Sequence record: BK061477.1
Source of the DNA: Pseudomonas phage vB_PaeS-D14C
Strand: one strand, 5' to 3'
DNA: 38,595 bases
Made by a program: the position numbers and the translations under genes. A model generated the notes under the pieces. The model was not told the DNA's origin and did not search any database. It worked only from the letters and a program-made list of their open reading frames with translations. Below, in pieces: positions 23,423-32,827 of the stretch. Numbering within the stretch: position 1 is the first letter of the stretch; the number at the start of each line of letters is the position of its first letter.

Positions 23423-24250
23423 ATGCTGATCCGTGGAATGCTCGGCCTCGGCGACTCGATCTATTCCAGGGCATTCCTGAGGAAGTACCCAGGCGCATTC
23501 CTCGAAACACCCTGGCCAGAGCTTTACCTCGACCTCGACGTGAAGTGCGTTCGCCCGGCGACGCAGTTGAGAACCCAGGCCAAGAACATCCAGCGCGAGC
23601 ACGACTGGCACCGCCCTGTCGGCGGCGGCCAAATGCGCATCGCCTACGGCCGAGACCCGATCATTCAGGGGCTGCGCAAGGCGTTCCGTTGCGAACCCGG
23701 CGAGTTCGACCTGCCGGACTTTGGTCCTCCGCCAGTCGATGGGCGCTATGTGCTGGTTCGCCCAGCCACGGTTCGCGCTGAGTGGCGCGCAGACACGCGC
23801 AACCCACTGCCTGAGTACATCGCCAGCGCTGCCTCAGAGATGCGCCGCAGGGGCTGGAAAGTGGTTTCCGTTGCGGACTTGGAGCCGGGCAAGGAATGGG
23901 CCATCGATCCACTCCCGCCGGCAGACATCCAGTTCCACAAGGGCGAACTGCCGGTTGAACAACTGCTGGCGCTGCTCCAGCACGCAGATGCCGTGATTGG
24001 CGGCATAGGCTGGATTGTTCCGGCCAGCATCGCCGCCAAGGTTCCGGCCTGGATCATCTGCGGCGGTCAGGGCGGATACAACTCGCCGGAGCACATCACC
24101 GACAAATGCATGGACCTGTCCCGCATCACCTTCGCGGTTCCTGACAGGTTCTGCCGCTGCACCATGAAACAGCACACTTGTGACAAAAGGATCGCCGATC
24201 ATGACGCACGCTTTGCCGCCTGGGCTGACCGACTGCCTGCTCTGGTCTGA
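23423..24250 (+). CDS. GT-B glycosyltransferase, family 9 (heptosyltransferase)-like, 275 aa.
   Basis: N-terminal GLGDSI resembles the GT9 ALGDV motif. C-terminal VIGGIGWIVPASIAAKVPAWIICGG resembles the GT9 DTGxxHLAAAxGxPxVxLFGP region. Call is low-confidence. Confidence 0.45.
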   Translation: MLIRGMLGLGDSIYSRAFLRKYPGAFLETPWPELYLDLDVKCVRPATQLRTQAKNIQREHDWHRPVGGGQMRIAYGRDPIIQGLRKAFRCEPGEFDLPDFGPPPVDGRYVLVRPATVRAEWRADTRNPLPEYIASAASEMRRRGWKVVSVADLEPGKEWAIDPLPPADIQFHKGELPVEQLLALLQHADAVIGGIGWIVPASIAAKVPAWIICGGQGGYNSPEHITDKCMDLSRITFAVPDRFCRCTMKQHTCDKRIADHDARFAAWADRLPALV

Positions 24251-24818
24251 AGAGCTTGGAATGGGTTTCCACCCTCGTCCTCCGATGGACTATAGCGGGC
24301 CGTACTTCGAGAAGTATCAGGTGCTCGATGCGACCCCGATGGGCGCCGCGCTGACCCAGGCCCGTATTGATCTGGTGCGCCGTCACTTTACCGGCCAGGT
24401 GGTAGACATCGGTATCGGCGGAGGCCGTTTCGTCACCGAGTCCGGCGCTATGGGTTTCGACGTGAACCCGGAGGCGGTGGACTGGCTTAAGGCGCAGGAG
24501 CGCTACTACGACCCGTACCAGCACCACGTAGAAGCCGTGACCTGCTGGGACAGCCTGGAGCACATTCCCGAGCCGGAGAAGCTGCTCGACCACGTTGGCG
24601 AGTGGCTGTTCGTGTCGATGCCGATCTACAAGGATCAGATCGACTGCCTGGCCTCCAAGCATTACAAGCCGGGAGAGCATTGCTGGTATTGGAGTCTCCC
24701 TGGCCTGGTTGCCTGGTGCGAGCGTCAAGGTTTCGAATGTGTCGAGCTAAACGACCAGGAGTCGAAACTTGGCCGAGAAGGCATCACCAGCTTTGCGTTC
24801 CGGAGAGTCCATGGCTGA
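24201..24818 (+). CDS. Class I SAM-dependent methyltransferase (Methyltransf_23-like), about 205 aa.
   Basis: VVDIGIGGGRF is motif I and CWDSLEHIPEPEKLLDHV is the motif II/III region. AAGGA lies 9 nt upstream of the ATG at 24201. Alternative starts are 24180 (GTG) or 24261. Confidence 0.6.
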   Translation: MTHALPPGLTDCLLWSEELGMGFHPRPPMDYSGPYFEKYQVLDATPMGAALTQARIDLVRRHFTGQVVDIGIGGGRFVTESGAMGFDVNPEAVDWLKAQERYYDPYQHHVEAVTCWDSLEHIPEPEKLLDHVGEWLFVSMPIYKDQIDCLASKHYKPGEHCWYWSLPGLVAWCERQGFECVELNDQESKLGREGITSFAFRRVHG

Positions 24819-25666: not shown

Positions 25667-25690
25667 CCCGCCACCGCGCGGGTTTTTATT
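25667..25690 (+). terminator. Rho-independent terminator (cccgc caccgc gcggg tttttatt) before the major tail gene.
   Basis: Read directly. Confidence 0.55.
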
Positions 25691-25712
25691 GCCTGCTACA
25701 GGAGAAGACGTT

Positions 25713-26216
25713 ATGTCGATGCTTACCCAAGGAACTCAGGTCTATGCCCTTGTTCCGCCCCGCTCTGGATCTGGTCCTTTTACGGTGATGGAGATCGAGT
25801 GCGCAACCTCCTTCAACCCCGGAGGAAACCCGGCGGATCAGATCGAGGACCCGTGCTTGAGCGAGACCTCGCGCAAATACAAGAAGGGCATGCGTACCCC
25901 TGGTCAAGCCACTCTCGGACTGAATGCAGATCCGCGGAATGCGAGCCATGTTCGGCTCTTTCAGCTCTCAGAGGATGACAGTGACCAGGATATTGTCTTT
26001 GCTGTCGGCTGGTCAGATGGTGTCGGTGTAAGCCCGTCCGCAGACCAAGACAGCAATGGAGACTGGGACTTTGATCTTCCGCCGACGCGTACATGGTTCG
26101 TTTTCCGTGGTTACGTCAGCGACTTCCCGTTCGATTTTGCAGCCAACACCCTGGTCGCCACCCAGGCCACGATCCAGCGCTCTGGCGCAGGGCAGTGGAT
26201 TCCGAAAACCGCGTAA
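25713..26216 (+). CDS. Major tail (tail tube) protein, 167 aa.
   Basis: Its position before the G/GT chaperone pair and its size. AGGAG lies 8 nt upstream. Confidence 0.6.
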
Positions 26217-26225
26217 GGAGCAGAC

Positions 26226-26576
26226 ATGAAACTAGCCGATCTGGTGGCCGCTGGCGCGGTCCTGGGCGATGGACTGGTGAAGAAAAGCATCACCTGGACG
26301 CACACTCCGCCGGGTAAGAAAAAGGCGGTCACGGACACCTTCGATGTATTCATCAAGCGCAGCAGTTTCGGCGCCATGGAACGCCTGTTCGCCCAAGACG
26401 ACGACAAGAAGAGCCAGAATGCGCGCTACCTGGCCGAGAGCGTAAGACTGGGTGAGGGTGGTGAAGAGGAGATTCCCTACGAAACTGCGTTCAACCTCGA
26501 CCCTGCGTTGGGCTTCCTGCTCTTGCAGGCTGTCGCGGAGGTCAATGGCACTGCGCCGGGTGACGAAAAAAACTGA
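26226..26576 (+). CDS. Tail assembly chaperone (lambda gpG analogue), 116 aa.
   Basis: Acidic ~115-aa protein between the major tail and tape measure genes. It ends with a slippery heptamer. Confidence 0.7.
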   Translation: MKLADLVAAGAVLGDGLVKKSITWTHTPPGKKKAVTDTFDVFIKRSSFGAMERLFAQDDDKKSQNARYLAESVRLGEGGEEEIPYETAFNLDPALGFLLLQAVAEVNGTAPGDEKN

Positions 26577-26872
26577 CGCCCGCCGATGAGGTTTGGCATG
26601 AACTCGTGCTGAACGGCATCGGCGGTTGCACCATTCGCGAGGCGAAGGAGCGCATCGACTACGACGAGTACAGGGCGTGGGTTGCCTACCTGAAAAAGCG
26701 TGGCTCCCTCAACGGGAGCTATCGCCTGGAGTGGGTGCTGGCCCAATTGGCGGCGATCCAGGCCAAGGTTGGCGGGGTGAAGTGCGAGCCCGACGACTTC
26801 CGCCCCCATGTTCGAGCGCCGGTAGAGTCGGTGGGGATATCGCTCGAACAGGCGATGGCCGCATGGGTTTGA
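26226..26872 (+). CDS. Tail assembly chaperone G-T fusion made by a programmed -1 ribosomal frameshift (T part corresponds to track ORF 26606..26872).
   Basis: A_AAA_AAC heptamer at 26567..26573, immediately before the G stop. The track places the downstream ORF in the -1 frame, where it has no start codon of its own. Confidence 0.55.
26567..26573 (+). promoter_or_regulatory. Slippery heptamer A AAA AAC for the G/G-T -1 frameshift.
   Basis: gacgaaaaaaactga read directly. Confidence 0.55.
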
Positions 26873-26969
26873 CCTGGCAAGGATGCTGGGTTCCTGTGCT
26901 GGCGCTCCGGTTGGCCAGGATGCTGGCTCCGTGCTAGATTCCGAGCGATCACCACCGGGAGGGTTGTTA

Positions 26970-27299
26970 ATGCGTAAGATATTGGTTGCTTCAATAGTTC
27001 TAACTGCTGTTTTAAGTGGATGCGCCTCTAGTGGAAAAGAGATTACGCAGGAGCAGGTGGATAGAATTGTGCAGGGACAAACAACTCAGGATCAGTTGAT
27101 TTCGATTTTTGGCAAGCCCATGGCGGAACAATACAATTCAGATGGGAGCCGTGTACTTACCTGGGGGTATGCCTATGTTGGGTTTATGGGGGCTGGCACC
27201 GAAACCCAGGGGCTTTCGGTAATTCTTGGTCCAGATGGAAAGGTTACAGGGTATAGCAGGGCAGGTTCCTCTCCATCCCCTGCAAGATTTGGTCGGTAA
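26970..27299 (+). CDS. Lipoprotein, 109 aa, with a SmpA/OmlA (BamE)-like domain. AT-rich moron.
   Basis: Signal peptide MRKILVASIVLTAVLSGC with an LSGC lipobox. QGQTTQDQLISIFGKP is BamE-like. GGGAGG RBS. GC content is clearly lower than the flanking tail genes. Confidence 0.7.
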   Translation: MRKILVASIVLTAVLSGCASSGKEITQEQVDRIVQGQTTQDQLISIFGKPMAEQYNSDGSRVLTWGYAYVGFMGAGTETQGLSVILGPDGKVTGYSRAGSSPSPARFGR

Positions 27300-27335
27300 G
27301 CTGTTTTAGTTTCTGATTTAATCGGCAGGTAAGAT

Positions 27336-27647
27336 ATGTTTGAGGAAGTTTATAATAATTGGGTTTATATTTTGTTTTTCGGGGTTTGGTTGGCGTCAAT
27401 CTCTGCGTATCTGGCAGCATCTCGCAGAAGAAGTATAGCCCTATGGTTTGTCTTTGGTTTCTTCGCTCCGATAATCGCCATACCTCTTATATTTATTCTA
27501 GGGGAAGATAAGCAAGCATCTGAACGCTCGTCTCGTCAGGCTGCAGTGGATGTCGGTATATCGAATGGTTTTAAGAAATGCCCATATTGCGCGGAAGCCG
27601 TCAGAGAGGAGGCTAAGCTATGCCGACATTGTCGGTCTGAGATATGA
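27336..27647 (+). CDS. Two-TM inner-membrane protein with a C-terminal CxxC...CxxC zinc ribbon, 103 aa. AT-rich moron.
   Basis: TM helices WVYILFFGVWLASISAYLAA and LWFVFGFFAPIIAIPLIFIL, then CPYCAEAVREEAKLCRHC. Confidence 0.55.
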   Translation: MFEEVYNNWVYILFFGVWLASISAYLAASRRRSIALWFVFGFFAPIIAIPLIFILGEDKQASERSSRQAAVDVGISNGFKKCPYCAEAVREEAKLCRHCRSEI

Positions 27648-27748
27648 GATATGGGCATGTCTGTACTGGCATCGGCCAAACTAAAATTGGCCGAAAATCA
27701 TATTCAATGGGGATGATTATCTGAAGAAGTAGAAAATCCCTATGCAAG

Positions 27749-27770
27749 CCGCCTTCGGGCGGTTTTTTAT
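27749..27770 (+). terminator. Rho-independent terminator (ccgcc ttcg ggcgg ttttttatt) before the tape measure gene.
   Basis: Read directly. Confidence 0.6.
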
Positions 27771-27788
27771 TGTCCGGAGAAAAGCTAA

Positions 27789-30700
27789 ATGGCCTCTCGC
27801 TCCCTTGGTGTGCTGACGCTCGACCTCATTGCGCGCATTGGGGGATTCCAGCAGAACATGAGTCGAGCCGCCCAAGACACTGCGCGCAGTATGGGGCGGA
27901 TCGAGCAAAGCACGCAGCGGGCGAGCTCTACAGCAGTTAGCGCAATCAAGTCTATTGGCGTTGCGGCAACTGCTTATCTGAGCGCCCGAGAACTTGTTGG
28001 GTATTCGCAAGCCTGGGTCTCTATTGAGAACCGCATCAAGCAGGTCAGCGAAAGTCAGGCTCAGTTCAGTCAATCGATGGAGGCAGTGTATTCCGTCGCT
28101 CAGAACGCGCAGTCGTCCTTGGAGGGTACTGCGGAACTGTACCAGAGGATTGCTGCTTCGACTGGTGAGCTCGGCGTAAATCAACAGCAAGTTGTCCAGG
28201 TTACCCAGAACATCAGCAAGGCTATGTCGGCCAGTGGTGTTTCCGCTGCCACTGCGGAAGGTGCGCTGGTGCAACTCGGACAGGCCTTTGCCTCTGGCGT
28301 GCTCCGAGGCCAGGAGTTGAACTCGGTACTCGAGCAGGCTCCGGGCTTGGCCCAGGCCGTCGCAAACGGTCTCGGGGTTGCGGTTGGAGACCTTCGAAAG
28401 CTTGGCGAACAGGGCAAGCTGACCTCCAAGCAGGTCTTCGAGGCGATTCTGTCTCAAACCCGAGCTATTGATGACCAGTTTGCGCGCGCCCAGACTACCA
28501 TCGCTGGCGCGTTTCAAGTTCTGGAGAACAGCGCGACCAGGGCGATCGGCAGCCTGGATAGCACTCTCGGGGTGTCCAAGGCTTTTACGGAAGCCATGGT
28601 TTCCCTGTCGAAGTCGCTTGACTCTACGAACGTGCAGTCCTTCGTCCAGGTCCTGAATACTGGGCTGTACCTGGCGATCGGACGTACTGCTGGCGCTCTG
28701 GTAGGTGCGACGGCTGCCAAGATCGCAGACGTCAAGGTGACCCAGGAGCAGACCTATGCCGCGTCGGTTGCTGCGGCTGGAGAGGTGCGACGCGCCCAGG
28801 CGGTGAAGGCTGAGGCCGTTGCCGAGTTAGACAGAGCACGCCAGGCCGTGGCTTCTGCTCGTGCGCAGGTGGCTGCTGACCGGGAGCGACAAGCCTCCGA
28901 AATCTCTCGTTTGCGGGCGGTGCAGGCATCGCTTGTGGCTGAGCGCGAACTCGAAGGCCAGCGGCTGAAGGCCCAAATCACAGAGATTGGCCGACAGCAG
29001 TCTGTCGCTCGAATGGCCGAGTTACGGCTAGCCGAAACGGCCATCATCAAGCAGCTTCAGGCTGCGGAGGCGCAATTGACGGCCACCACCGTGGCGGGCT
29101 CGCAGGCGGTTACTGCAGCCCTTGCTCAGCGAGTGTCTGCAACCGAAGCGCTTTCTGCGGCGAACTTGCAACTTACCGCAGCTCAAACTGCCTCGACGGC
29201 CGCAATGGGCCGATGGTTCGCGGCCAGCACAGCTTTGGGGGCAGGGTTAAATGCCCTGAGAACAGCAGGCGCGGGGATTCTCAGGATTGCTGCTGGATGG
29301 CCGGGGCTGATCATCTCTCTGGGGATAGTAGCCTTGTCCTTCGTCGATTTCGGGGACAAGGCCGAGAGTAATGCTGGTCGTGCGGCCAATGCTTTCGAAG
29401 ACGCCTCCACCCGCATCCGCCAGGCCGCTCGGACGATGATTCCGGAGGATCTTTCCGGGCTCAGCTATGACCAGTTGAAGCAGCAGTTGGCGGGCCTTCA
29501 GGATCAATTGAAGGATGCCGAGGCGCTTCAGGAGCGGTTCCAGAAGGGCGTTGACGACAATACCGACATTCCGTTTGGTCCTTCTCTGGACGAGGCAAAG
29601 GAGAAAGCAGAGTCCTTGCGCCTTGCCATCCAGAAGACACAGCGAGAACTGGACGGTGCAAGGTTCGCTTCGGATAAGGCTGGCGCGAGCTATCTGGATA
29701 ATTTGCAGAAGCAGAGTGTTGTCGCTGGCAAGCTGACCGAGGTAGAGAAGCTCCGCGCCCAGATCAGCGCTGGCATCCTGAAGCTAAGTCCTGACGATGA
29801 AAATCGCGCCCTGGAATATGCCGCAGCCGTGGACAAGGCGAATGCCTCGACCAAGTCCCAGAAGGACCTGTTGAAGGACTCTGCGAAGGGGCTGAAGCAG
29901 GCTGAGGAGCGGTATCTGGACCTCAAGAAGGAGATCGACCCTACCGCGACTGCGACGGATGAGTACAGGAAGAACATCGAGGCCCTCAACACCCTGAAGG
30001 ACAGGGGAAAGGTCACGAGCCAGGAGTATGCGAAGGGAATCGAGTGGGCGGCCAAGTCGTTCAACTCCGCAGTGGACGCGGCCAATCCGTTCGTGAAGCG
30101 GCTCAGAGAGATCAAGTCCGCGATGGACGAGAGCTTGGGCAATCTCAAGCTCGAAGGGCAACGCGAAATCCTCGGGATGGGGATGAGCGATAGCCAGAGG
30201 GGGCTGTTCGACAAGCTGAACGAGGAAAATGATCGCTACGCCAAGGCCCGCAGGGATCTTGCCGACCGCTACGCAGACAGATCGGTCGGGATGAGCGACG
30301 ACGAGTACCAGCAAGAGCTCCAGGCTCAACAGAAGCACCATGAGCAAATGCTGGAGCAGTTGCAGGCAAACTACGATGCTCGACTTGAGGCTCAGGGGGA
30401 CTGGGTGTCCGGAGCCCGCTCCGCATGGGAAACCTACGTGGAGGATGCACAGAACTACTCGAAGCAGGCCTCTGACTTCGTGTCTGGCGCCCTTGGCGAT
30501 GCTACCAACGGCTTGGGTGATGCAATCACCGATATCGTCACGCGGACCAAGAGCCTTGGAGATGCGTTCGGTGACATGGCTGCGGACCTGGCTAAGTCGG
30601 TCATCAAGGCCCTGGCTGACATGGCCGCCCAGTGGCTGGTCTACCAGGCGGTGCAGTTGGTCGTAGGGAAGACGGCTCAATCGACTGCGGCAATCGGGCT

Positions 30701-31178
30701 GGTCGCCAATGCTCAGGCAACGGCGTTCCAGGCACAGCTAGCAGCGTTTGCCTCGACGGCTGCTATCCCGATTGTTGGCCCTGGCCTTGCTGCTGGTGCT
30801 GCTGCGGCTGCTGCCGCAGCTACCGCGCCAATGGTTGCTGGAGTTTCTTCGGCAGCCTTCGCGGGCATCGCGCACGGCGGCATCGACAACATCCCGAAGG
30901 AGAGTACCTGGCTGCTTGATGCTGGTGAGCGGGTGCTCAGCCCGAACCAAAACAGGGATCTGACTGATTTCCTCAGCAGGGCGGGCGGCGCGAGTGCTGG
31001 GGCTGGACAGGCGCCGTCGATCACTATCAACGCTCCGGTCACGGTTAATGCCCAGCCGGGCATGAGCCAAGAGGAAGCTCGAATGCAGGGAGAGGCTGCC
31101 GGGCTGGCCTTGCGGGAGGAGGTCCGGAGCGTCATTCGGGAAGAGATGGGGCAGAACGGTCTGCTTTGGAGACGATAA
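27789..31178 (+). CDS. Tail tape measure protein (lambda gpH-like), 1129 aa.
   Basis: Very long alpha-helical, Ala/Gln-rich protein with a C-terminal Gly/Ala-rich hydrophobic segment, in the canonical position. Confidence 0.9.
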   Translation: MASRSLGVLTLDLIARIGGFQQNMSRAAQDTARSMGRIEQSTQRASSTAVSAIKSIGVAATAYLSARELVGYSQAWVSIENRIKQVSESQAQFSQSMEAVYSVAQNAQSSLEGTAELYQRIAASTGELGVNQQQVVQVTQNISKAMSASGVSAATAEGALVQLGQAFASGVLRGQELNSVLEQAPGLAQAVANGLGVAVGDLRKLGEQGKLTSKQVFEAILSQTRAIDDQFARAQTTIAGAFQVLENSATRAIGSLDSTLGVSKAFTEAMVSLSKSLDSTNVQSFVQVLNTGLYLAIGRTAGALVGATAAKIADVKVTQEQTYAASVAAAGEVRRAQAVKAEAVAELDRARQAVASARAQVAADRERQASEISRLRAVQASLVAERELEGQRLKAQITEIGRQQSVARMAELRLAETAIIKQLQAAEAQLTATTVAGSQAVTAALAQRVSATEALSAANLQLTAAQTASTAAMGRWFAASTALGAGLNALRTAGAGILRIAAGWPGLIISLGIVALSFVDFGDKAESNAGRAANAFEDASTRIRQAARTMIPEDLSGLSYDQLKQQLAGLQDQLKDAEALQERFQKGVDDNTDIPFGPSLDEAKEKAESLRLAIQKTQRELDGARFASDKAGASYLDNLQKQSVVAGKLTEVEKLRAQISAGILKLSPDDENRALEYAAAVDKANASTKSQKDLLKDSAKGLKQAEERYLDLKKEIDPTATATDEYRKNIEALNTLKDRGKVTSQEYAKGIEWAAKSFNSAVDAANPFVKRLREIKSAMDESLGNLKLEGQREILGMGMSDSQRGLFDKLNEENDRYAKARRDLADRYADRSVGMSDDEYQQELQAQQKHHEQMLEQLQANYDARLEAQGDWVSGARSAWETYVEDAQNYSKQASDFVSGALGDATNGLGDAITDIVTRTKSLGDAFGDMAADLAKSVIKALADMAAQWLVYQAVQLVVGKTAQSTAAIGLVANAQATAFQAQLAAFASTAAIPIVGPGLAAGAAAAAAAATAPMVAGVSSAAFAGIAHGGIDNIPKESTWLLDAGERVLSPNQNRDLTDFLSRAGGASAGAGQAPSITINAPVTVNAQPGMSQEEARMQGEAAGLALREEVRSVIREEMGQNGLLWRR

Positions 31179-31526
31179 GTGGCTGAGACCTTTTCTTACT
31201 GTACGCGCCTTGGAGCTACCGGCGAGACTGCTCAACGCACCTGGCAGAACGACCTCGGGGATGGATACGTTCAGTCCGGCGGAACGGGGATCAACACCAG
31301 ATCCGAGACCTGGGATGGAATGACGATCATCGGGCGCCTGGAGGCTGGTGATGATCTCCTGGGCGCCCGCGCCTTTCTGGACCGGCACGAGGGGTACAAG
31401 TCGTTCCTATGGACGCCCCCTGGCGGCGCACAGGGTCGATACCGGTGCAATGGATACAAGCTGAGGCCGTTGGGTGGAGGGCTGTACGAACTGAGTTTCA
31501 CGTTCGTCCAAGTCTTCTACCCGTAG
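31179..31526 (+). CDS. Minor tail protein M (lambda gpM family), 115 aa.
   Basis: LGDGYVQ, KSFLWTPPGG and FTFVQV correspond to lambda gpM FGDGYSQ, KSFLWTPP and FEQV. Confidence 0.8.
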   Translation: MAETFSYCTRLGATGETAQRTWQNDLGDGYVQSGGTGINTRSETWDGMTIIGRLEAGDDLLGARAFLDRHEGYKSFLWTPPGGAQGRYRCNGYKLRPLGGGLYELSFTFVQVFYP

Positions 31527-32108
31527 CAACCAACCATGAGCGGTTATGCCGCGGGAGAGAGGAATGAACACCCAAACTACCACCAAAGGTCAGGCTATTA
31601 AAAGCCAAGCTGTAGACTCGAAAGGAAATCCAGCTTGGCTTTTACGCTCTGACGGTCAAATCGTGATTTCGGCGCAGTTCGTAAAAGATAGCGCCGTGAC
31701 CAAAGCTGTTATTCGCGGTTGATATTTGGGATATCAAGAGTGTAAGTGCTTGGTATCACTCCGTCCGGAAATACCTTTTGGAAAATCTCTAGCACGAAGT
31801 TATCTCCTACACCTTGCTGCCTGCATGCCAGTGAAGCTTTTCGGGCGATGTGTCTTTGTTGGCTGCAAGAATCTTCTGTCGAGTCAGGGTGCCTCTGATA
31901 AATTCAAGACAAAGCATAAATCTCGGAGCGAGTTGAATGAGCACTTTTGCTTGTGAGTCCAACATGAGGGAGCTCTCAATGAGCACAGGTCGGCCCATTG
32001 AGGAGCTAAAGCAGGTAGTCGTGACTGAGTTAATGGTCAAAGCCGCGATGGATTATGTGCTCGGGTTATGGGATCGGGATGTCGACATTTTCCTGCTAGA
32101 GGATGTGT

Positions 32109-32726
32109 TCAGGATAATGGCAGTTCTTCAGCCTCGGCCTCTGGATATTCCAAAATTGACGAGCGCACCTTCTCAATGAGCTTGTCGAACTTGGATAGCG
32201 ATGCCGATTTAATTTCATCTGGAACACCGCATTCCAACAGCCCAGCAATAATGCCGAGCAGGTAGTAAACCTGCATTAAGTCGAGCGCGATTTTTCTAAG
32301 TTCAAGCAACGTTAGCGTTTCTGAGTAGGGCGTTCCGTCACTGTTCCTCTTTGTTGGATGGTAGATAGGGGCCTCGTCCTTGCCCTCTGGTGATAACCCC
32401 CAGGCCCAATGGACGATCTTGTTTCTCTGCGCCGTCATCTTCTTGAATGTGGACAGAGCGACATTCAGCCTTTCCGGTATGTCGATCGGTAACGGCGATG
32501 TTTCGAGAAGCTTTGTGACCGTTGCTGCTAATGAGGTCGAGCGGAGCCTTAATGATTCTACGACGACCGACTGGGTATCCGCTCTTAGTCCGCTTAGAAA
32601 ACCGAATATCCGCATGAGCGGTTCATCGCACAGGCTGTGATTGACCACGATCTGCCCGATTTCTGCCCGCATGGCAGAGTTTGGGCCCGCGTCGTATCTA
32701 TAGTTTGTGGTTCTTGGGTCTTCCAT
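32109..32726 (-). CDS. Hypothetical 205-aa protein on the reverse strand inside the tail cluster. AT-rich moron.
   Basis: GAGGAGG Shine-Dalgarno motif 8 nt upstream of the ATG (MEDPRTTNYRY...). Track ORF 32109..32789. No family recognised. Confidence 0.55.
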   Translation of the reverse strand: MEDPRTTNYRYDAGPNSAMRAEIGQIVVNHSLCDEPLMRIFGFLSGLRADTQSVVVESLRLRSTSLAATVTKLLETSPLPIDIPERLNVALSTFKKMTAQRNKIVHWAWGLSPEGKDEAPIYHPTKRNSDGTPYSETLTLLELRKIALDLMQVYYLLGIIAGLLECGVPDEIKSASLSKFDKLIEKVRSSILEYPEAEAEELPLS

Positions 32727-32827
32727 TCCGCTTGCCTCCTCGGCCCCTGGTCTCATCCAAGCACGGGAAGCTACCGCCAGAGCAAACATGCTGCCACTGG
32801 CATTTCATCCACGCTGTACAACCTTCC

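Follow-up and report, generated by a model that had tools for sequence, protein, structure and literature searches.

A stack of two probable moron genes between the T and tape measure genes of Pseudomonas phage vB_PaeS-D14C, with a possible role in phage exclusion

The tail gene cluster of Pseudomonas phage vB_PaeS-D14C, of which a stretch of 38,595 nucleotides (record BK061477.1; hereafter, the window) was analysed, contains an exchangeable low-GC cassette (26906..27762, + strand) between the tail gene T and the gene of the tape measure protein (TMP). The cassette carries two small genes on the + strand: ORF1 (26970..27299), encoding a 109-residue lipoprotein with a BamE/BLIP-like domain, and ORF2 (27336..27647), encoding a 103-residue membrane protein composed of a helical hairpin and a C-terminal zinc ribbon. 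Comparison with related phages makes it highly probable that the cassette is a stack of two independently mobile, non-structural morons, that is, accessory genes not belonging to the virion, at an insertion hot spot between T and TMP (T|TMP). That its function is phage exclusion is a tentative reading by analogy, to which we give slightly less than an even chance. The cassette is an ordinary kind of prophage add-on, and both of its proteins are uncharacterised; less expected is that the genes of the zinc-ribbon membrane family, in several genera, so strongly favour the position directly before the TMP gene.

Exchange of the cassette among related phages

Phage PACT201 matches the window up to position 26905 and again from 27763, with flanks 95.5% identical, and holds a different AT-rich insert of 493 bp in between. 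These BLAST breakpoints, together with spacer typing of 33 loci, define an island of 857 bp, so that the island described in the initial annotation (26883-27788) is real, with its borders moved to 26906 and 27762; position 26883 is the first ATG of a longer open frame, and the homologues all begin at the Met codon at 26970. In a sample of 29 closely related loci from IMG/VR, with T proteins 98-100% identical and TMP N-termini 94-100% identical, three cassettes were found at the site: the one in the window (type A, 919-bp spacer) in 22 loci, a second (type B, 532/533-bp spacer) encoding one 128-residue protein with multiple transmembrane segments and a C-terminal CxxC...CxxC motif in six, and a third (type C, 509-bp spacer) encoding a 116-residue lipoprotein with an LTGC lipobox in one. 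All the alternative cassettes thus encode small envelope proteins. No cassette is present in four distant relatives, which have only 42-43 bp with a hairpin at the site, or in D3, which has 49 bp. Since the island is replaced or missing between nearly identical flanks, it is not a conserved structural component, which the initial annotation had named as a refutation, and its character of a horizontally acquired accessory cassette is borne out. Homology between the types was sought and rejected, types A and B having only the ribbon in common, and the type-C lipoprotein and ORF1 only the signal peptide.

The deviant base composition is that expected of a moron and agrees with the low GC content noted earlier: the GC fraction is 0.469 in the island versus 0.587 in the whole window, placing it among the lowest 0.3% of 857-bp windows, and the GC fraction at third codon positions is 0.41 and 0.39 in the two island genes versus 0.68-0.81 in the adjoining tail genes. 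The left junction (...GTGCTGGCGC|) is common to all three cassettes, and each closes with a terminator just 5' of the TMP start, the hairpin sequences of types A, B and C being unlike one another. At their left ends, cassettes B and C are similar to the 'GTGA TGGTAGAGT' region around the stop codon of the T-like gene of another phage, which suggests transfer of cassettes from slot to slot. Among the type-A carriers (L012-L036), the cassette is on average 99.5% identical, with 13 variable sites in 919 bp, compared with 98.3% for the T gene and 95.7% for the first 900 nt of the TMP gene, the flank values from this ungapped comparison being lower bounds; the stronger conservation of the cassette than of its flanks suggests its recent horizontal spread across diverged backbones.

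In type A, the closing element is an intrinsic terminator (27746..27771, + strand) with a GCCGCC-UUCG-GGCGG stem and a U-run, 17 nt 5' of the TMP start, essentially where one had been predicted (27749..27770); its hairpin (27746-27765) has an 8-bp stem and a UUCG loop, with a folding energy of -12.8 kcal/mol (z = -2.3). The cassette therefore has its own terminator, as a moron should, but a similar hairpin also occurs in relatives without a cassette: in the distant relatives (L037-L040, 3738-3780), a CCGCCTTCGGGCGG hairpin with a T-run, nearly identical to the closing hairpin of type A at 27746-27771, lies between T and TMP. The mid-operon terminator may be a resident feature, 5' of which the cassettes may insert.

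The window as a whole represents a D3-related temperate P. aeruginosa siphophage or prophage of the PP9W2-like kind, and the region is 96-98% identical to those of PP9W2, D14Q, phita81A, 5371/5399 and U7. The local gene order is tail tube, G, T, island, TMP and M, in accordance with the flanks claimed in the initial annotation. On the left, the tail tube gene (25689-26216) is followed by the tail assembly chaperone gene G (26226..26576, + strand; Pfam Phage_TAC_13, PF16459, E=1.9e-20; phrog_1749) and by the T segment of the G/GT chaperone (26606..26872, + strand; Pfam Phage_tail_T, PF06223, E=5.7e-8; phrog_337), which, judged from the coordinates, is in the -1 frame relative to G. On the right, the TMP gene (27789..31178, + strand; Pfam TMP_3, PF20155, E=1.7e-62; Tape_meas_lam_C; phrog_339) is followed by the minor tail gene M (31179-31526).

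Two envelope proteins and their families

The targeting of both gene products to the cell envelope, one as a lipoprotein and the other as a membrane protein, was confirmed. ORF1 has the signal peptide and LSGC lipobox recognised at the outset, with Cys18 as the lipidated residue, followed by Ala, Ser and Ser at positions +2, +3 and +4. By the Lol-avoidance rules of Pseudomonas, the sequence Ala-Ser-Ser after the lipidated Cys directs sorting to the outer membrane, so that the protein is predicted to be anchored there. ORF1 belongs to phrog_3135 (E=9e-35), a family of unknown function, and fails the gathering threshold of Pfam BamE (PF04355), scoring 21.9 bits versus the cut-off of 23.2, the match being limited to profile positions 1-47 of 71. 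A profile search collected 560 relatives, among which those from Pseudomonas at 40-45% identity have precomputed PF04355 matches, and a G-x-T-T...G-x-P motif is conserved in the homologue alignment. The AlphaFold2 (AF2) model (mean pLDDT 78, core > 90) supports the SmpA/OmlA-like fold proposed earlier, the best Foldseek matches in the PDB being BamE chains (TM-score 0.65-0.70); further fold neighbours are an immunity protein of the type VI secretion system (T6SS) (9uu1), a TpgA-like chain (9vnj_B) and a BLIP-like protein (3d4e). In a comparison of the ORF1 profile with PDB sequences, BamE reached an E value of only about 0.2 and the BLIP-like protein scored better, and among the viral models in BFVD, only the SmpA/OmlA lipoproteins of PP9W2 and B3 match the fold.

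ORF1 thus has the small alpha-beta fold of BamE (SmpA_OmlA), a lipoprotein subunit of the β-barrel assembly machinery (BAM), whereas its gene and those of its relatives differ from the chromosomal bamE in location. Every family member examined lies in a prophage accessory slot, contrary to what a genuine BAM subunit would show, and 51 of the 58 non-window loci in IMG/VR lie outside tail modules. Homologues are found directly after the repressor gene in YMC11/07/P54, next to the integrase gene in Lodos, downstream of cI in Salmonella S107, E. coli PhiR26_1 and Rac-like prophages, and, in one case, beside an S24 repressor gene. The homologues 72-74% identical to ORF1 lie alone between a TAC/DUF1799 gene and the TMP gene of a different tail type.

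ORF2, a member of phrog_8436 (E=5e-20), has the two transmembrane helices ascribed to it earlier, predicted as hydrophobic segments at about residues 10-28 and 34-56 and modelled by AF2 (pLDDT 83.5) as helices 9-29 and 34-55, followed by a linker helix and the ribbon. Its C-terminal four-cysteine motif was also correctly recognised, except for the spacing, which is CxxC-x10-CxxC and not x13. The Zn_ribbon_3 profile (PF13248) scores 23.1 bits, below the 27-bit gathering cut-off, and matches 40 of the 43 aligned family members; Cys82, Cys85, Cys96 and Cys99 are invariant in all 43, and the AF2 model shows two short hairpins, as predicted for a two-knuckle zinc ribbon. The family consensus of the ribbon is KKCPxCAExIKxEAxxCRxCG, and that of the loop between the helices is ...A-x-SKGRS-x3-W, with SRRRS in the window. 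An exhaustive search at E<=1e-3 yielded 2240 representatives, the matches usually spanning the whole architecture. The membrane hairpin has no Pfam family in any of the 43 members, and the E. coli members are labelled in RefSeq only as 'zinc ribbon domain-containing protein'. A Foldseek search of the PDB with the ORF2 model gave only generic zinc ribbons (E > 0.5) and no match to the whole protein, and the profile found only L32-type ribbons among PDB sequences (E > 0.06).

The genomic position of the ORF2 family was followed in 64 non-window-type IMG/VR loci, which are viral loci from non-redundant sources and phylogenetically non-independent. In 46 of these, the gene lies immediately upstream of a large gene, and all ten of the large genes sampled encode TMPs according to Pfam. 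The tail module contains 55 of the 64 loci, including one just after the TMP gene, four between L and K, and four after K; after clustering at 95%, 18 of 30 clusters are in the pre-TMP position and 24 of 30 in the tail module. The same pre-TMP slot is used in the HK97-like Salmonella phage FSL SP-016, in Klebsiella Kpn_R1, and by the ORF2 homologues at 64% and 43% identity, and more distant members are found in immunity regions, beside repressor genes. Some enterobacterial prophages also have ORF2-family genes at their L|K and K|I sites. No report of the pre-TMP habit of this zinc-ribbon membrane family was found in the literature.

Weighing a role in phage exclusion

The closest precedent for the cassette is HK97 gene 15, annotated as a moron with a terminator between GT and TMP, for which Juhala et al. 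(2000) and Cumby et al. (2012) are said to be the primary sources. [quoted passage not shown] The cassette resembles gene 15 in its slot between the GT chaperone and TMP genes, in its foreign base composition, in the terminator directly before the TMP gene and in the small product predicted for the inner membrane (ORF2). It differs in that gp15 is a YebO-like protein of 62 residues with a single helix and without a zinc ribbon, in the presence of two genes, one of them for a lipoprotein, in the Pseudomonas host and in being known from its sequence, whereas the function of gp15 has been demonstrated. Action at the inner membrane during genome entry, as proposed here for ORF2, is also known for P22 SieA (PMC10883804) and for SNIPE, a defence nuclease that associates with the TMP during injection (PMC13190303); these are unrelated proteins encoded at other genomic locations, and ORF2, unlike the nuclease SNIPE, has no catalytic domain.

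For ORF1, the initial annotation had pointed to Cor of phi80/N15 and Llp of T5. Lipoproteins within structural gene clusters are indeed established as exclusion proteins, the variable lipoproteins Lpp021 and Lpp010 of mEpimmI coliphages having been shown experimentally to exclude their cognate phages (PMC11893012). Like ORF1, Cor (phi80/N15/T1), Llp (T5) and Lpp021/Lpp010 are small phage lipoproteins, several of them encoded in or beside tail genes, and variable between related phages, which makes them a plausible functional analogy. However, they block protein receptors (FhuA, OmpA and LamB), and most relatives of ORF1 are encoded outside tail clusters. The close relative PP9W2 needs lipopolysaccharide (LPS) for infection and not a protein receptor such as FhuA (PMC9769523), and therefore a block of a protein receptor in the manner of Cor or Llp is not an obvious route of self-exclusion. 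The specific likeness to Cor and Llp was not upheld in the structural comparison either, neither protein appearing in the fold searches: Llp is absent from the PDB and BFVD matches and ORF1 gave no PHROG match to it.

By analogy with these systems, the two genes would be expressed from the prophage, probably also by late read-through, and their products would protect the lysogen by interfering with phage entry. The helical hairpin of ORF2 in the inner membrane may hinder the TMP-dependent passage of DNA across that membrane, in the manner of HK97 gp15, whereas ORF1, anchored in the outer membrane and facing the periplasm, might bind a component of the tail tip or of the host envelope through its BamE/BLIP-type domain, and thereby form a second, independent layer of exclusion. 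We put the chance that two stacked morons block phage entry in this way, with ORF2 acting like gp15 and ORF1 as a periplasmic binder, at close to even, or a little below. Several observations weigh against it. The expression of the genes and the exclusion phenotype of both are assumed by analogy. No homology to any characterised exclusion protein was found for either product: comparison of the ORF2 family profile with gp15 by hhalign gave a probability of 0.6%, the two belonging to different PHROGs; the match of ORF1 to the Cor family (phrog_1119; E = 0.08) covers residues 1-51 only, essentially the signal peptide; and PADLOC had no match for ORF1, its only match for ORF2, to a homing-endonuclease model, being a spurious one through the zinc finger. 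A consensus scan upstream of ORF1 revealed no sigma-70-like site reaching 9/12. The orientation of ORF2 is ambiguous, with the basic loop and acidic N-terminal tail pointing to a periplasmic ribbon, and the total charge and zinc chemistry to a cytoplasmic one; assignment of the topology from charge bias was abandoned, as the two ways of counting disagree. Finally, the 64 loci lack phylogenetic independence, and the pre-TMP bias of the ORF2 family could stem from a permissive insertion site and vertical inheritance in related tail modules, and not from a link to the TMP. In the literature searched, functional tests were found neither for these proteins nor for exclusion proteins of a BamE-like or zinc-ribbon kind.

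A benefit to the host other than phage exclusion is the least improbable alternative, though an unlikely one. The cassette would then alter the envelope physiology of the lysogen, with possible effects on outer-membrane biogenesis through BAM-like contacts, on tolerance of stress, detergents or antibiotics, on serum resistance, or on immunity to periplasmic toxins. Such lysogenic conversion has a precedent in morons such as Lom and Bor (PMC3594210), and would suit the BamE/BLIP fold, a general periplasmic binding module with a T6SS immunity protein, a TpgA-like chain and a BLIP-like protein among its neighbours, as well as the occurrence of family members in conversion slots adjacent to repressor and integrase genes; nevertheless, it leaves unexplained both the consistent TMP neighbourhood of the ORF2 family and the fact that each alternative cassette encodes a small envelope protein, and no toxin, T6SS or virulence partner lies nearby. 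Somewhat less likely still is a function in the lytic cycle, in which the genes, transcribed with the tail operon, would with an Llp-like timing spare the progeny from lysing cells and debris, or tune the envelope or the handling of the TMP before lysis. The location of the genes inside the late tail operon on the same strand, the lack of a strong upstream promoter and the gap of only 35 nt to the upstream gene in some homologue loci are compatible with such a helper, but the terminator directly after the cassette and its foreign composition fit an autonomous unit, both families are also present in immunity regions, co-oriented with the repressor gene and expressed in lysogeny, and phages with identical tails lack the type-A cassette. 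A structural or assembly component of the tail is scarcely credible: it is suggested only by the position inside the tail gene cluster, and is opposed by the loss or replacement of the cassette between the T and TMP genes of the closely related loci, by its absence from D3, by a lipoprotein signal peptide and a membrane hairpin unlike virion proteins, and by the homologues in immunity regions.

The initial annotation had further envisaged a two-component system spanning the envelope, here weighed as an obligate one: the lipoprotein in the outer membrane and the zinc-ribbon protein in the inner membrane would act together in exclusion. ORF1 and ORF2 always occur together, at 99-100% identity, in the 22 IMG/VR carriers and in eight GenBank phages, and a lipoprotein gene adjoins an ORF2-family gene, in either order, in four other lineages (Kpn_R1, L073, L064-66 and L091/93; coordinates L041 3876-4641, L073 4445-5300, L064 2151-3092 and L091 4351-5260). 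On the other hand, the closest ORF2 homologues (64%, 49%, 43% and 40% identity) are alone before the TMP gene, as are those of ORF1 at 72-74%; the 51 of 58 other ORF1-family loci that lie outside tail modules, as described above, have no ORF2 relative reported nearby; and the two lipoproteins compared with ORF1, that of type C and, from the four lineages, that of Kpn_R1, share only the signal peptide with it. The adjacency may have arisen by chance, from the stacking of cargo common among morons, or it may be a functional combination that recurs. With the nearest homologues of each gene alone in the slot and the two families differing in positional habits, obligate co-occurrence is contradicted, and the pair is best read as two autonomous morons and not as an obligate machine, which we consider quite improbable.

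If exclusion by the two morons is correct, the cassette and its two alternatives would help to account for the unequal phage susceptibility of P. aeruginosa lysogens with otherwise identical prophages, with a bearing on phage therapy, the gp15 paradigm would be widened by the zinc-ribbon family from a single protein of enterobacteria to a large group of proteins across genera, and a tractable handle would be gained on the poorly understood TMP-borne passage of DNA across the inner membrane. The pre-TMP habit of the ORF2 family turns this into a specific, testable hypothesis. In its broadest form, which we regard as speculative and rather doubtful, the hairpin and zinc-ribbon family (phrog_8436/31852, about 2,240 representatives) would comprise widespread, unrecognised prophage entry blockers that target the TMP-dependent passage of DNA, their genes being TMP-linked in siphophages of Pseudomonas, Salmonella, Escherichia and Klebsiella, and the T|TMP hot spot would be a small arsenal in which interchangeable periplasmic lipoproteins, in this case one of BamE/BLIP fold, add layers of exclusion. 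If exclusion is incorrect, what remains is a clean case of allelic cassettes at a moron hot spot.

Expression signals, repeats and neighbouring features

Strong ribosome-binding sites had been ascribed to both genes; this holds for ORF1, with the Shine-Dalgarno sequence GGGAGGG 6 nt upstream, but not for ORF2, whose AGG is only moderate. Expression of the cassette in the prophage would be in keeping with slot usage and precedent. Below the scan threshold, a weak candidate promoter, TTGGCC-N18-(TGc)TAGATT, lies at 26911..26940 (+ strand), and in the two loci with the closest ORF1 homologues, the -10-like hexamer of this site and the leader are both conserved. The best sigma-70-like score of the region belongs to a site inside ORF1 (TTGGCA-17-TACAAT, 10/12; 27109..27137, + strand), a consensus match that could drive ORF2 independently, and a promoter-like site of the same score, 10/12, stands at the head of cassette B.

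An imperfect direct repeat of 22 nt (82% identical; 26875..26933, + strand, with copies at 26875-26896 and 26912-26933) straddles the left junction at 26905/26906, its first copy lying in the flank common to all cassette types and its second being specific to type A. Inside the island, a 14-nt inverted repeat (93% complementary, 61 nt apart; 27574-27587 and 27649-27662) brackets the end of ORF2 with its stop codon, and a 20-nt direct repeat is found at 27426-27445 and 27725-27744; both may be due to chance. A search of the island against Rfam gave no match to a non-coding RNA family at E <= 1.

The present analysis also corrects the public annotation of PP9W2, in whose record (OM141125.2; L123 4370-4700 and 4740-5050) only an 80-residue fragment of ORF1 is annotated and ORF2 is omitted. 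Neither gene is annotated in the records of 5399, 5371 and phita81A, and the PACT201 sequence (L001) has indels and an N in the region that break the reading frames.

Other moron sites with their own terminators are found in tail operons, namely orf23/orf24 of D3 (L122 4938-5555) and, in HK97 (L007 5800-6976), the K|I terminator and the gp22/gp23 morons. In the window itself, a second low-GC island (31546-32800; GC 0.47-0.49) lies between M and L (Pfam match from about 32936) and has the look of a further moron site within this tail operon; it contains genes of unknown function belonging to phrog_33126 (31546-31722, + strand), phrog_25599 (31937-32179, + strand) and phrog_26374 (32109-32789, - strand). 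Between the head-completion and tail-completion genes (23423-24818), two overlapping genes encode a 275-residue protein, annotated in relatives as a GT9/GT-B glycosyltransferase and without a Pfam match here, and a 212-residue Methyltransf_23 protein, an unusual cargo of the head-tail joining module, possibly for modification of the virion or of LPS.

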